This document shows positions 19,104 through 23,058 of a stretch of 64,000 nt of DNA, piece after piece (the stretch's first letter is position 1; the number at the start of each line of letters is the position of its first letter). This DNA is from Methanobacteriota archaeon (GTDB taxonomy: Archaea > Thermoplasmatota > E2 > DHVEG-1): assembly GCA_963769885.1 (NCBI GenBank), contig CAVYNH010000007.1:256001-320000 (forward strand). Reading direction: 5' to 3'. The notes under the pieces were generated by a model. It saw only the letters and a list, made by a program, of their open reading frames with translations. It was not told the origin of the DNA and ran no database searches. A program made the translations under genes and the position numbers.

Positions 19104-19925
19104 TTATCCTTCCTGGACGGGGGATCGCCAGTCGAGGCCAGGGGTGCGGATGCCGAGTTTGGGGACGAGTGGGAAGCGGCGTTTGTGCTGGCTACGTACA
19201 CGCATAACGCGGATACGTTCCACCTGAGCTTTGGTGGCATCGGCTTCTCGTTGGATAAGAGGGGGTGGGAGTTTACAATCGAGGCCGAAGAGAATCTCAT
19301 CGAGGGTTTCGTATTTCATTTTGAGTTCGCTTTCGTCAGTCTGGCCAATCCAAAGGCCGGCGGTAGGCGGTTTGGTAATGATGGGGTTGGGGATGCCCAG
19401 GTACTTTGCGAGTTGGTAGATCTGGGACTTGTAGAGGTCGCCGATGGGCTGGATGTCGACGCCGCCGTCGCCGTATTTGGTGAAGTAGCCGACGAGTATC
19501 TCTGATTTGTTGCTGGTTCCGCAGACGAGGCGGTGGGTCTGGTTGGCGTAGGTGAAGAGGAGGATCATGCGGGCGCGTGCCTTGATGTTGGCGAGGGTCT
19601 TTTTTGGTGGGCGTCTACCGAGAACGGTGGTGTAGGTATCGATGATGGGGGTGATGTCGATGGTGGTGCAAGGAATCTTGTATTTTGTTATGATGAGTTT
19701 TTGGTGGCGTCGGTCGCTTTGGGGGGTGGCTTCGTCCGGCATGAAGAGGCAGTGGACATGCCTGCGGCCGAGGGCTTGGGTGGCGAGTAAGGCCACGACT
19801 GCGCTGTCGACGCCGCCGGACAGTCCGATGATGACGCCGTTTGCGCCGGCTTGGCGGACGTAGGTTTTGATGAAGTCTTTGATGACGATGCTTGCTTCTT
19901 CGGGGTTGATGGTGGGGATGGTCAT
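19104..19925 (-). CDS. nadE: NH3-dependent NAD+ synthetase
   Basis: GLSGGVDSA, NIKARARM, GTSNKSE, GYFTKYGDG, KPPTAGLW.GQTDE. Confidence 0.97.
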   Translation of the reverse strand: MTIPTINPEEASIVIKDFIKTYVRQAGANGVIIGLSGGVDSAVVALLATQALGRRHVHCLFMPDEATPQSDRRHQKLIITKYKIPCTTIDITPIIDTYTTVLGRRPPKKTLANIKARARMILLFTYANQTHRLVCGTSNKSEILVGYFTKYGDGGVDIQPIGDLYKSQIYQLAKYLGIPNPIITKPPTAGLWIGQTDESELKMKYETLDEILFGLDCKLPPPLIQREADATKAQVERIRVMRVRSQHKRRFPLVPKLGIRTPGLDWRSPVQEG

Positions 19926-21256
19926 CGTTGCCAGGTCTCCAGGGATTCTTTGGTGATTTCCATGGCTTGGGTGAGTATTTTATTGTCAACGGGGGAGAAG
20001 GAGGCGCGGGCGATGGCGAAGGGGATGCGGCGGAGGTAGTCGCTCATTCTGAGGTCGCGGCGGAGGGTGGTGTTGATGTGGGTTTCGACGATGGTGTTCA
20101 TGTCTTGGAGGTAGCGTTCGACGGCGGTGTCGGTGGCGGTGATGGTGGGCTGGTGGGTGCGGGCGAGTTTGAGCCATTGGTCGTAGTAGTCGTGTTTGTC
20201 GACGGCGTCGCCGGCGCCGTAGAATTTTTTGCGGAAGAGGGCGAGGCGGTCTTCGCGGCTGATGTTTTCGACTCTGACAACGAGGGCGCAGCGGCTGAGG
20301 AGCAAGGGTGAGAGTCCGATGTCGCTGAGTGCTTGTTTGCCGAAGACCTTGCTGCGTGGGTTGGCGAAGGCGATCATGATGAACTGGCTTTCGATGGTCT
20401 GGTGGAGTTTCGAGGAGTGGACGCTGCATTTGCCGTTGCTGAGGAGTTCGTAGCAGTATTCGATGTCATCTTCGGGGATTTTGTCGAATTCGTCGACGAG
20501 GACGAGCTTGTGGTCGGCGTGGGGGAGGGCGCCGAGTTCGCCGGTGCCGAGGTGGCAGACCAAGCCACTTCGTGTGGTGTTGGCGCCGATGGTCATGACG
20601 TCGGTGAAGTCGGTGCTGATGATTTCTTTGGCCATGGTTTTGCTGCTGCCGGGTTCGCCGATGATGAGGGAGTGAACGGGCTCATCGAAGGTGCTGAAGA
20701 GGCTGGTGGCGACGACTTTTTTCATGGTGTCGTTGCCTTGGATGTCGTGGAAGACGTTCTGCCAGAAGCCGTCGAAGCCGCGGTTTTGTGCGAACTGACG
20801 GAGGTCGTCTTCGGGCAGGGTGATGCCGTGTCGTTCGTGGTCTTGGAGGTGTTTGGCTTCGAGGATTTCTCTGAGTCCTTCGGCTTTGGTGATGACTTGG
20901 GTGAAGGTCGGTGATTTTCTGGTGAGCCGGAGGATGTTGCCTTCGATGCTAAGGGCGGTGTTTCCCCAGCCAACCGCATAGACGTCGAGGGCGTTGAGGA
21001 CGGATTTGATGACGGCTCTGTCGCGTTTTTTGACGGTGATTTCGACGAGGTCGTCGGTGGTGATGGTGATGTCGAGGATGTTTTGGTTCGCGAGGATGTT
21101 GCGGGCGCGCTGGATGAGCATGGTGCCTTTGCCTGGGCCCATGCCTAGCGATTGCACTGAGCTGAGGGCGATCTGTTCGAGGGTGGTAATGCCCATGCTC
21201 TCCAGTTTCTTCCGGTCGGAAGGGATGACTCCGAGCATGGTGAGGGCGTCTTCCAT
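19922..21256 (-). CDS. MCM-like AAA+ ATPase with RadA-like HhH N-terminal domain
   Basis: Probable start ATG 21256 (444 aa). GEPGSSKT, GAL..AD..LVLVDEFDK, AFANP, PLLLSR. No Zn-finger/OB N-terminal domain. Confidence 0.8.
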   Translation of the reverse strand: MEDALTMLGVIPSDRKKLESMGITTLEQIALSSVQSLGMGPGKGTMLIQRARNILANQNILDITITTDDLVEITVKKRDRAVIKSVLNALDVYAVGWGNTALSIEGNILRLTRKSPTFTQVITKAEGLREILEAKHLQDHERHGITLPEDDLRQFAQNRGFDGFWQNVFHDIQGNDTMKKVVATSLFSTFDEPVHSLIIGEPGSSKTMAKEIISTDFTDVMTIGANTTRSGLVCHLGTGELGALPHADHKLVLVDEFDKIPEDDIEYCYELLSNGKCSVHSSKLHQTIESQFIMIAFANPRSKVFGKQALSDIGLSPLLLSRCALVVRVENISREDRLALFRKKFYGAGDAVDKHDYYDQWLKLARTHQPTITATDTAVERYLQDMNTIVETHINTTLRRDLRMSDYLRRIPFAIARASFSPVDNKILTQAMEITKESLETWQR

Positions 21257-21363
21257 AGGCTGCCTTGTGATGAAACCGGATAGAAACACTCTTCTGACTA
21301 AAAACATTTTTGGTAAAATCCCACTATCTTTTTTGAGGCGCGCACGAAGTAATAGGGGAGTGT

Positions 21364-22419
21364 CTAGCCCTCGGTTTGAGATTGAAGGGCTAGGTCGCGT
21401 TCGATTGTTTGGAGGCAATAGGGATCGGCGTGCGATTGCTCTGTGTGTGCGGCGGAGACGCAGAGGCAGCCGCCTTTGCAGGAGGCGCCAAAACGACAGC
21501 CTTGACAGGTAGCGTTTAGGTCTTTTTTAGTGAACTCTCGGTTATAGGTGAAGCAGGCGGGGTCGTTCCAGATCGAAGTCAGCGATTGGGAAAGAAGGGA
21601 GCCTTCTATGAACGATGGTGGGAGGGAGAGGCATCCTTTCACGGCACCGTCGCTTTGGATGCCGAGGTTGCTGATGCCGGCCTGGCAGCCGATCCAGCGA
21701 GGGAGGATGTTGATGTTGGGAAGTATCTTTGAATTGTAGCCGAAGCAGTGGGCGCCGACGATGGGGAGTTCTTTCATGCTGTATTGGTTGCGCGTGCCGG
21801 CGATGAAGAGTGCGACGGCGTAGAATTCATCTTTGGAGAGGGTGAGGTTTGGTGGGCATCGGCCGATGGCTGTGGCAACCTGGAGTTGCCATGCGACGCC
21901 GGTGTTAAGGAGGTGCTGTCGGAGGAGAGGGAGTTCGGGGAGGTTTTGTTTGTTGACGGTGGTGACAACGCTGACGCGGATTCCCGCATCTGTGAGGAGG
22001 GGCATGACTTCGAAGCATTTTGCAAATGAGCCGGGCCTTTGTCTGATGGCGTCGTGGGTCGCGGGTGTTCCTCCGTCGATGCTGAGGGCGATCGTGCGGA
22101 AATCGAGTGTGCGGAGTTTTGTTATAATCTCTGGGGTGATAATCCAGCCGTTGGTGACCATGCTTGGCATAATCCCGTGGTCTTTGATGTCGGAGGCGAC
22201 AGCGTACCAGTCGGGGTAGAGGAGGGGTTCACCGCCGAGTAGGGAGATTTTCTTGGTGCCGAGATCTGCGAGTTCTTTGGTTGTGCGGTTCCAGATGGCG
22301 GTCGGGAGTTCCTTGGTCCGTGGTCGGCCGGCTGCAGAGCCGCAGTGGATGCAGTTCATGTTGCAGCGTAGGCTGAGTTCATACGCAACGGCAAAGGGCG
22401 TGTAATGTTTCCATTTCAT
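21364..22419 (-). CDS. Radical SAM/SPASM protein (putative peptide maturase)
   Basis: CNMNCIHC, GGEPLL, SIDG..HD.IR..GSF; SPASM cysteines GCQAG...GC...CQGC.....CKGGC...C. Start ATG 22419. Confidence 0.93.
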   Translation of the reverse strand: MKWKHYTPFAVAYELSLRCNMNCIHCGSAAGRPRTKELPTAIWNRTTKELADLGTKKISLLGGEPLLYPDWYAVASDIKDHGIMPSMVTNGWIITPEIITKLRTLDFRTIALSIDGGTPATHDAIRQRPGSFAKCFEVMPLLTDAGIRVSVVTTVNKQNLPELPLLRQHLLNTGVAWQLQVATAIGRCPPNLTLSKDEFYAVALFIAGTRNQYSMKELPIVGAHCFGYNSKILPNINILPRWIGCQAGISNLGIQSDGAVKGCLSLPPSFIEGSLLSQSLTSIWNDPACFTYNREFTKKDLNATCQGCRFGASCKGGCLCVSAAHTEQSHADPYCLQTIERDLALQSQTEG

Positions 22420-22456
22420 GGTGTGGTTCACCTTTTGTTTGAATTTGTTTGTCGGA

Positions 22457-22486
22457 TGGCCGGTGTCCCTTGAGGGGCACCGGTCA
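22457..22486. other. Intergenic GC-rich stem-loop between small ORF and radical SAM gene
   Basis: TGGCCGGTGTCCCT-TG-AGGGGCACCGGTCA, a 14-bp inverted repeat with two imperfect pairs. Confidence 0.7.
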
Positions 22487-22495
22487 CGGTTCTGT

Positions 22496-22780
22496 TTAGA
22501 ATCGGCCGAACATCTGGTAGATGGCTTGGCCGATGTTGTCGAAGTCCTGGGTGCTGACACTGTGGTAGCGTCCTGGGGTGGCGAGGATGAGTGATGAGAC
22601 GGCGCCAAGGACGGTGACGGCAAGGATGAGCAGACTGTTGATGAGCCGTCTATTGCGTCGAATGGTGCGGTTAACTGCATCTTTCGTCATCCCTAATTTT
22701 TCTCCTAGTGTGTACAGCGTTGGTGATGTCAATCCGGTCTGGATTGTGCCTGCCTTTGTCTCTTCATATGGGTTTTCCAT
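22496..22780 (-). CDS. Small protein (94 aa), candidate radical SAM substrate or precursor peptide
   Basis: GGAGG RBS; directly upstream of and co-oriented with rSAM/SPASM; one hydrophobic helix and C-terminal TPGRYHSVSTQDF segment. Confidence 0.65.
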   Translation of the reverse strand: MENPYEETKAGTIQTGLTSPTLYTLGEKLGMTKDAVNRTIRRNRRLINSLLILAVTVLGAVSSLILATPGRYHSVSTQDFDNIGQAIYQMFGRF

Positions 22781-23058
22781 TGTTTCCTCCTTTGTCCACA
22801 AATGCATTTTGTTGTGGAGCGGGGAAAAGAGAAATTATTGTTGTAGGTGTTTTTTTGGAGGATTTAGAAAATGGTTGGTTTTGATTGCTTTCAGGAATGA
22901 AGGAGATCAAGAGTCGCCTGTGTGACGTCTGTGTTTATAGGGGTGACGCTCATTTTAACCTCGTGGGAAATACGTGGGAATAAACGAGGGTTGGTATTTA
23001 AAACTTGTGTCAAAACAACAGAAAAACCCTTATTGGAAGGACCATGAGCAACTTCGTG

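Follow-up and report, generated by a model that had tools for sequence, protein, structure and literature searches.

A 64,000-nucleotide stretch of archaeal DNA (hereafter the window; contig CAVYNH010000007.1 of assembly GCA_963769885.1, positions 256,001 to 320,000, from a Methanobacteriota archaeon placed in the Thermoplasmatota) encodes a 94-residue protein, P0003, next to an enzyme of the radical S-adenosylmethionine (SAM)/SPASM superfamily, P0002. We propose that the two genes form a modification cassette of the type that makes RiPPs (peptides that ribosomes synthesize and that are then modified post-translationally), in which the small protein docks on the radical SAM (rSAM) enzyme, is spliced at Tyr72 and then displays an inhibitor tail. 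We put the probability of this scheme at about 0.6. That the precursor family and the rSAM family constitute a conserved substrate-enzyme pair is, in our judgement, highly probable.

Conservation of the precursor-enzyme pair

Both genes and the hairpin between them lie on the minus strand. An earlier note on this DNA, made from the letters alone, had proposed a precursor-hairpin-maturase layout consisting of a 94-residue open reading frame (ORF) with a strong ribosome-binding site (RBS), a GC-rich hairpin and an rSAM/SPASM gene on the same strand. The whole layout is present, although the note had missed that the strand is the minus strand. The peptide features quoted there (LYTLGEKLGMTKDAV, RRNRR, a hydrophobic helix and a Tyr-containing tail) and the enzyme motifs (HCGS, WQLQ, W.GCQAG and SDG.VKGC.SL) are exact.

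A sequence search with the precursor alone returned one homolog, 82% identical, on a contig that also encodes a 72%-identical rSAM enzyme, and further precursor relatives surfaced only via synteny and profiles. The enzyme has hundreds of relatives by sequence search. Loci with a 59-61%-identical enzyme contain a 98-99-residue ORF at the same place and on the same strand, with a similar spacer and different flanking genes, and syntenic, alignable small ORFs also adjoin rSAM genes at only 40-61% identity. From 531 stretches that encode an rSAM relative, 79 loci in species-representative genomes were taken; their upstream ORFs were first listed without any filter, and a common leader/core design was visible there. 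A six-frame scan found an ORF with the core pattern beside the rSAM homolog in 65 of 81 loci, and a stricter scan that required both leader and core retrieved 79 ORFs in 56 of 81 loci. Moreover, a profile built from the precursor alignment matched 208 representative clusters among 1.84 billion proteins (E <= 1e-3), all of them 59-174 residues long. The earlier note had suggested collecting homologs and examining neighbouring small ORFs for leader and core motifs; both are conserved, the rSAM homologs do have such a peptide next to them, and they do not lie beside AhbC/D or NirJ genes.

The family precursors combine a conserved leader and a conserved core with a variable middle. The leader follows the pattern (I/L)(Y/F)x(I/L)GxxLG(L/I/M)xxx(E/D)(I/V), and the core, at the C-terminal end, follows G-(T/S/G)-x-Y-x-(T/S/G)-(I/V)-S-x-x-D-F. 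In a MAFFT alignment of 32 members of the transmembrane (TM) type, Tyr72 and Asp79 are invariant, and 90% or more of the sequences retain Gly26, Ser76 and Phe80. Across 78 distinct cores, the position before the core Tyr is variable (R 24, Y 13, H 11, L 11, F 9, K 7), whereas the residue after it is Gly in 49 and another residue in 29, including the window protein (R-Y-H). The earlier note had considered a Tyr-His cross-link in the tail, and Tyr72 and His73 are indeed adjacent in the window protein and its closest relative. However, His follows the core Tyr in only one of the 78 cores and no other core His is conserved, which makes this cross-link improbable in the extreme.

The pair occurs in Thermoplasmatota, Thor-, Loki- and Atabeyarchaeia, Geobacter, Syntrophus and Elusimicrobia, with differing flanking genes; this spread beyond archaea had escaped the earlier note. 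Its distribution is patchy: of the genomes sampled, the cassette turned up in 19 of 301 from the phylum and in 8 of 35 from the same family, and it was not found in a same-genus genome that is 91% complete. Some precursors carry tandem cores, with two or three copies of a 15-16-residue unit (D-V-Y-K-A-G-T-x-Y-G-T-I/V-S-x-K), and their clusters have two or three rSAM paralogs. Elsewhere (L038, L043) as many as five precursor genes share a cluster with two or three rSAM genes. In the bacterial precursors of Geobacter, Syntrophus and related forms, the leader motif stands ahead of the hydrophobic stretch of a Sec-type signal peptide that has an A-x-A site; a Kunitz/BPTI domain (Pfam E ~1e-14, Lys at P1) follows, and then a Tyr core preceded by Lys or Arg. 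The sample of Kunitz-bearing precursors is small and its members are interrelated. The operational marks of a RiPP pair are a conserved leader and core next to the enzyme in divergent genomes, a spacer that varies, and some loci with more than one core or precursor; all of these were found here.

These features also bear on whether the small protein is instead a membrane anchor or regulatory partner of an enzyme that modifies a lipid or cofactor. The TM helix of the precursor, the weak similarity of the enzyme to AhbD and NirJ (131 and 109 bits) and the housekeeping surroundings, in which no protease or exporter is adjacent, would fit such a role. Yet 32 of the 79 family precursors have no hydrophobic segment (47 contain a 19-residue window of hydropathy >1.8), and in the predicted complex described below the TM segment lies outside the interface while the core enters the barrel mouth. 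A patchy distribution also speaks against a core role in lipid or heme metabolism. Therefore, because of the tandem cores, the several precursor genes per enzyme that are common in the family, the members without a TM segment, the secreted Kunitz fusions and the patchy distribution, we regard the small protein as a substrate, and the anchor explanation as very unlikely.

The earlier note had described the precursor as membrane-tethered, which agrees with the hydrophobic segment that directly follows RRNRR in the sequence. The predicted topology is N-in/C-out, with a geometry like that of tail-anchored proteins. The archaeal precursors show no consistent small residue at -1/-3 before the core in the alignment and thus no consistent signal-peptidase site, so that an uncleaved membrane anchor is the favoured form of the archaeal product, as judged from these sequences.

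One in-frame stop (TGA or TAA) interrupts each of three rSAM homologs from other genomes of the phylum, which may be pseudogenes or assembly errors.

Family placement of the enzyme and predicted docking

P0002 matches Radical_SAM (2.4e-23) and SPASM (7e-07) in Pfam. It has both the CxxxCxxC motif and the seven-Cys SPASM domain that characterise the radical SAM/SPASM superfamily, and the seven invariant SPASM cysteines (245, 263, 305, 308, 314, 318 and 335) imply two auxiliary 4Fe-4S clusters. Because the enzyme begins only 18 residues before CxxxCxxC, it has no fused RiPP recognition element (RRE), as the earlier note had supposed.

No curated model in Pfam or NCBIfam claims the enzyme. The best NCBIfam match is TIGR04103, which we take to be the family behind InterPro entry IPR026482, with 195.5 bits over profile positions 5-344 of 412, below membership at a cut-off of 725; the second is TIGR03913 with 178.9 bits, below membership at 591.75. 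The resemblance to TIGR03913-type enzymes noted earlier thus holds as a second-best match (179 bits), but it falls far under the 592-bit cut-off and TIGR04103 scores higher, a closer link to the tyramine spliceases that the earlier note had missed. All other SPASM families score at most 142 bits, and the lesser matches include PqqE, mycofactocin, WgkB and DynA. Homologs from Thor (227 bits), Loki (194) and Geobacter (184) likewise stay below the TIGR04103 cut-off, and no true TIGR04103 member was found in the source genome or 14 control genomes. By sequence, the PDB returned no splicease structure, the best entries being SkfB, BlsE and PqqE at ~1e-16.

Two known activities were considered and rejected. 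For heme and heme d1 enzymes (AhbC/AhbD/NirJ), scores range from 94 to 131 bits against cut-offs of 500-650, and the neighbouring genes are housekeeping genes unrelated to heme. The lack of Cys in the core excludes sactipeptide or ranthipeptide chemistry; the window precursor as a whole contains none, and Cys is not conserved in the family cores.

For comparison, four enzymes were taken from annotated plasmids of Nostoc, Azospirillum, Aureibacter and Agathobacter rectalis. The Nostoc enzyme is a true TIGR04103 member beside a Nif11 precursor that ends in an L-Y-G site, the Azospirillum enzyme is a true TIGR03913 member beside DUF1843 peptides, and the Aureibacter enzyme adjoins three DUF1843 peptides. 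In a quick maximum-likelihood tree, with a Bacillus enzyme and three paralogs from the source genome as the few outgroups, 21 sequences associated with Y-x-x-x-S-x-x-D-F formed a clade (SH-aLRT 97) that is sister to the TIGR04103/TIGR03913 group (SH-aLRT 96), with a joint support of 98; in this tree the enzyme groups with known spliceases over other SPASM enzymes. CxxxCxHCGS, WQxQ and WxGCxAG occur in all 26 sequences of the joint clade and I/F/M-G-Y in all but five under the pattern used, and all four motifs (CxxxCxHCGS, WQxQ, GY and WxGCxAG) are missing from the outgroups. By its motifs and tree position, the enzyme is a member of the splicease-related superfamily, in a separate unnamed clade.

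The founding tyramine splicease, PlpX, is a member of IPR026482 (PMC11002830). The type I system PlpX/PlpY/PlpA therefore represents the curated family with the best, though far sub-cut-off, score for P0002; the window differs from it in the lack of a PlpY-like gene, in a leader that is neither Nif11 nor NHLP, and in the lack of the ~70-residue C-terminal extension. TIGR03913, the GDL-motif-peptide-associated maturases, has the same catalytic and SPASM signature motifs as P0002. Its loci likewise have small peptide genes upstream, several of them, and in each peptide a conserved Tyr stands before Gly, Ala or Met. In contrast to P0002, its enzymes have C-terminal extensions of 120-170 residues. 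The Tyr of DUF1843 peptides is N-terminal and that of the window precursor C-terminal; an identity of the precursor family with the DUF1843 (GDL-motif) peptides was rejected, as the two are unrelated (hhalign probability 0.2%).

The earlier note had also proposed predicting the structure of the complex. Co-folding, with an enzyme alignment, a precursor alignment, three 4Fe-4S clusters and SAM as input, placed leader and core on the enzyme: the median interface score (ipSAE) was 0.76 (runs 0.81, 0.70 and 0.76) versus 0.01 for the best control. Among solved complexes, 58 of 80 attained this mark, as did 2 of 110 mismatched pairs; these counts are only rough since the calibration used neither custom alignments nor riding ligands. 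The partner pLDDT was at least 53, and contact agreement between runs was at least 49%. In the model, leader residues 16-40 contact enzyme residues 197-215 and 340-347, so that the leader-like N-terminal stretch pointed out earlier is conserved and, by prediction, docks on P0002. Residues 66 and 68-80 of the precursor contact the barrel-strand ends (9-12, 56-61, 86-88, 108-111, 148-152 and 174-180) and the SPASM domain (221-225, 232-234, 263-265 and 318-320), with Q178 and Q180 of WQLQ touching core residues 74-75. The model supports a leader-plus-core binding mode.

Two side observations concern further rSAM proteins. The Agathobacter rectalis plasmid enzyme (L096:2980-4134; a human-gut Lachnospiraceae), 36% identical to P0002 and annotated only as "radical SAM protein", follows an unannotated small ORF (L096:2692-2898) that ends in an M-Y-G-T site and precedes a transporter gene of the major facilitator superfamily; it is probably an unannotated spliceotide-type locus. 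On another contig of the source genome, three adjacent radical SAM/SPASM paralogs (G000:C4:141028-145140; loci L005, L006, L008 and L091-L093) are 23-27% identical to P0002 and are without the WQxQ and HCGS signature.

Proposed modification, function and relation to known systems

We hypothesize that the N-terminal amphipathic helix (residues 17-40) serves as a built-in leader that would dock on enzyme helix 197-215 and on the enzyme C-terminus, while the core (residues 68-80) would thread over the mouth of the TIM barrel, near SAM and the Fe-S clusters. Radical chemistry would then be centred on the invariant Tyr72. By analogy with the sister clade of tyramine spliceases, the likeliest outcome would be that a tyramine equivalent is excised, converting Arg71-Tyr72 into an alpha-keto-beta-arginine (ketoamide). 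Since the hydrophobic segment ends only 27 residues before the C-terminus, insertion would be post-translational and leave the enzyme time to act on the tail in the cytoplasm; the protein would then insert N-in/C-out and place the modified tail outside the cell. A ketoamide after a basic residue may act as a warhead against Arg/Lys-specific serine or cysteine peptidases.

Known spliceases act at X-Y-G sites, from which they remove a tyramine equivalent (-135.06 Da; PMC11414181, PMC11626197, PMC9811515), and their spliceotide products inhibit Ser and Cys proteases through the ketoamide (PMC11626197). In binary systems without a Y protein, the leader helix binds and activates the enzyme (PMC11414181). 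The binary spliceotide systems RhaX/RhaA, RcsX/RcsA and RasX/RasA of Rheinheimera (PMC11414181, PMC11626197) resemble the window in several respects: they consist of an rSAM/SPASM enzyme and a precursor with no RRE protein; their leader alpha-helix is predicted to bind the enzyme, as it is in our co-fold; and they have a Tyr-centred, near-C-terminal core with a variable residue before Tyr. CxxxCxHCGS, WQxQ and WxGCxAG are likewise common to P0002 and the splicease-family proteins. The window differs in its archaeal host, in the separate enzyme clade (~30-36% identity to the splicease-family proteins compared), in a core of the form Y-x-x-(I/V)-S-x-x-D-F (here R-Y-H) in place of a strict X-Y-G, in the TM helix between leader and core, and in being known from its genes alone.

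Given the pair, tyramine excision is plausible by this analogy, at somewhat less than an even chance, and other Tyr-centred or core chemistry, again given the pair, is about as probable or slightly less so. The latter would be the same pair with another reaction, either a C-C or C-O cross-link of Tyr72 to Ser76, Asp79 or Phe80, or epimerisation or hydroxylation within S-V-S-T. Several points favour it and count against the splicing scheme. Ser76, Asp79 and Phe80 are near-invariant, as conserved as Tyr72 and beyond the needs of a pure X-Y-G splice site, and the strictly kept S-x-x-D-F is not found in known splice sites. The Gly that follows Tyr at characterised splice sites is missing in 37% of the cores, and the window has His. 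The lowest-error contacts of the co-fold fall on residues 74-77, so that the target could be a residue other than Tyr72. Moreover, SPASM enzymes make many types of cross-link, and models of such families are among the matches of P0002.

Against this alternative, the named proteins closest to P0002 in hidden Markov model score, tree position and signature motifs belong to the splicease family and to TIGR03913, not to cross-linking families. The second position past the core Tyr is Gly in 15 of the 78 cores, which excludes a general three-residue cyclophane on C-beta, and the absence of Cys from the precursor removes sacti- and ranthipeptide chemistry. The conserved S..DF could also serve in recognition, as do splice tags of 10 to 25 residues (PMC11414181, PMC10533398). 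We consider another reaction on the same pair rather unlikely overall.

Further considerations weigh on the splicing scheme itself. The gene pair is known from sequence and prediction. P0002 shares only 30-36% identity with named proteins of the splicease family, the tree was a quick one that included few outgroups, and the co-fold calibration is rough. Topology and export are predicted from charge (the positive-inside rule) and hydrophobicity. The pattern used to select precursors fixed Tyr, Ser and Asp, which by itself accounts for part of their invariance in the larger set; the listing of upstream ORFs made without a filter shows the same motif as the pattern-selected precursors. Finally, the products of the window subtype may differ from those of the methyltransferase-bearing cassettes described below.

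If Tyr72 is excised, the product could be a surface-displayed ketoamide protease inhibitor with an Arg71 warhead, inserted in a tail-anchored-like manner, although we regard this identity of the product as doubtful. The bacterial members fit such a function, in that the Lys at P1 of the Kunitz domain and the Lys or Arg before the core Tyr would form two heads against trypsin-like peptidases. As a speculation, an inhibitor might protect a peptide-degrading sediment archaeon from its own secreted C25 gingipain-like enzymes or from the peptidases of competitors. The Kunitz-fused bacterial members in any case offer a concrete, testable hypothesis of function, namely protease inhibition.

By gene content, the window cassette is a minimal two-gene, methyltransferase-less variant of the clade. 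A methyltransferase gene accompanies the enzyme in 43 of the 66 loci that fall below 48.5% enzyme identity to P0002 (five of the 66 are plasmid comparison loci, leaving 61 genome loci) and in none of 20 loci with an enzyme at least 48.5% identical. One Thor-type methyltransferase query found nothing in the source genome, which is 92% complete. The three-gene archaeal and bacterial cassettes comprise an rSAM enzyme, a methyltransferase and Tyr-tail proteins; their enzyme clade, leader and core motifs are those of the window, and the methyltransferase of the Loki-type example tested carries TPR repeats. The window subclade differs in having no methyltransferase, exactly one precursor per enzyme, always upstream and always with a TM helix, and an additional aromatic tail after D-F. 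This tail measures 7-19 residues and ends in R-F-F or F-G-R-F, versus mostly 0-5 residues elsewhere. In four loci of the window subclade, a gene for a 139-residue AbrB/SpoVT-type protein (MazE_antitoxin in Pfam), which may be a regulator, lies directly upstream of the precursor; it is absent from the window.

Splicease types have reportedly been classified by Scott et al. (Chem, 2022), whose 939 predicted systems may include this clade. Our literature search, which did not cover that classification, returned no description of the motif, of membrane-anchored precursors or of experiments on them. The search also returned no report of a characterised radical-SAM-modified peptide from archaea. Thousands of spliceotide and graspetide clusters have been detected bioinformatically in bacterial and archaeal genomes (PMC11626197), and a 2025 survey lists rSAM RiPPs in archaea as predictions only (PMC12144867), in line with the remark in the earlier note that they are barely characterised.

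With two genes, one substrate and neither an accessory protein nor a methyltransferase, the pair is among the simplest entries for a heterologous test of the clade. Should the cassette act as proposed, the clade would be an archaeal-bacterial family of backbone-spliced membrane or secreted proteins that needs no following Gly and, here, no methyltransferase. Tyramine splicing would extend backbone beta-amino-acid formation to archaeal membrane proteins, relax the X-Y-G rule, and supply a new splice tag and a new enzyme for protein engineering. Another reaction would mean new SPASM chemistry on a very well-defined 9-residue motif.

Locus features and neighbouring genes

The features of the locus and of the homologous loci referred to above are collected in Table 1.

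Table 1. Coordinates of the cassette in the window and of selected features in homologous loci
Feature	Position	Strand	Basis or remark
Precursor/substrate gene P0003, 94 aa	22496..22780	-	leader and basic patch, then a single TM helix, the conserved Tyr core and an aromatic tail
Shine-Dalgarno sequence GGAGG of precursor gene	22786..22790	-	sequence read; 6 nt upstream of ATG at 22780
Leader helix, residues 17-40, L-Y-x-L-G-x-x-L-G-M-T-K-D-A-V	22661..22732	-	alignment and co-fold
Hydrophobic TM segment, residues 46-67	22580..22645	-	sequence read; RRNRR just before
Core, residues 68-80, T-P-G-R-Y-H-S-V-S-T-Q-D-F	22541..22579	-	alignment and co-fold
C-terminal aromatic tail, residues 81-94, ends F-G-R-F	22499..22540	-	specific to methyltransferase-less subclade
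GC-rich hairpin between precursor and maturase	22457..22486	-	folding, dG -22.4 kcal/mol, z -3.28
Radical SAM/SPASM maturase gene P0002, 351 aa	21364..22419	-	Pfam, NCBIfam, alignment, tree
Radical SAM cluster motif C19-x3-C23-x-H-C26 (CNMNCIHC)	22342..22365	-	invariant in enzyme alignment
WQLQ motif, residues 177-180, barrel strand 6	21880..21891	-	invariant in 26-sequence clade including splicease family
SPASM domain	21415..21687	-	Pfam match and invariant alignment columns
TATA-like element TTTAAATA, candidate promoter	22996..23003	-	sequence read; ~215 nt upstream of precursor ATG
Tandem-core precursors	L041:3708-3920, L042:264-461, L044:6555-6806, L046:3537-3869		clusters with two or three rSAM paralogs
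Kunitz-bearing bacterial precursors (Geobacter, Syntrophus)	L064:3497-3973, L072:3511-3981, L086:3454-3984, L058:3571-3996		
rSAM homologs with in-frame stop	G022:C335:1957-2952, G011:C88:8039-9022, G125:C7:58550-59569		
AbrB/SpoVT-type genes	L001:5124-5543, L002:5142-5561, L026:1435-1950, L031:2319-2738		

The precursor gene is single-copy in the genome, and its product has no match in Pfam or NCBIfam. An alternative in-frame ATG at 22807, which would give 103 residues, has no RBS. The rSAM gene start is preceded by AGGTGA, and a 438-residue version of its ORF is an in-frame upstream extension of the 351-residue reading.

The precursor and the rSAM gene are separated by 76 nt, within which the hairpin reported in the earlier note was recovered. 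None of 200 shuffles folded as well. Strong intergenic hairpins (z <= -4.0) are present in 7 of 10 homologous loci and absent from the other three, and those in AT-rich genomes are often followed by a U-run. The window hairpin has no U-tract after it and so differs from the usual terminators of archaea; it could plausibly act in transcript stability or attenuation. A part in setting transcript stoichiometry, which the earlier note associated with such layouts, would be conjecture for this hairpin.

By reading of the translations, the neighbours are unrelated housekeeping genes: those upstream encode a KH-domain protein, a RIO kinase and eIF1A, and the one downstream encodes an MCM-like ATPase. 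Among the ORFs of the window, no protease, transporter, exporter or accessory (PlpY-like) gene adjoins the cassette. The region upstream (22764-23013) contains only two TTG-start ORFs of 40 and 48 residues, and RBS or homolog evidence was found for neither. A scan for bacterial sigma-70 promoters and terminators is uninformative for an archaeon. The TTTAAATA element lies ~55 nt beyond the stop codon at which the upstream KH-domain gene ends; as a promoter it would give the transcript a long 5' untranslated region. At the other end of the cassette, the longest reading of the MCM-like ORF (19922-21418) shares 55 nt with the 3' end of the rSAM gene (21364-21418).

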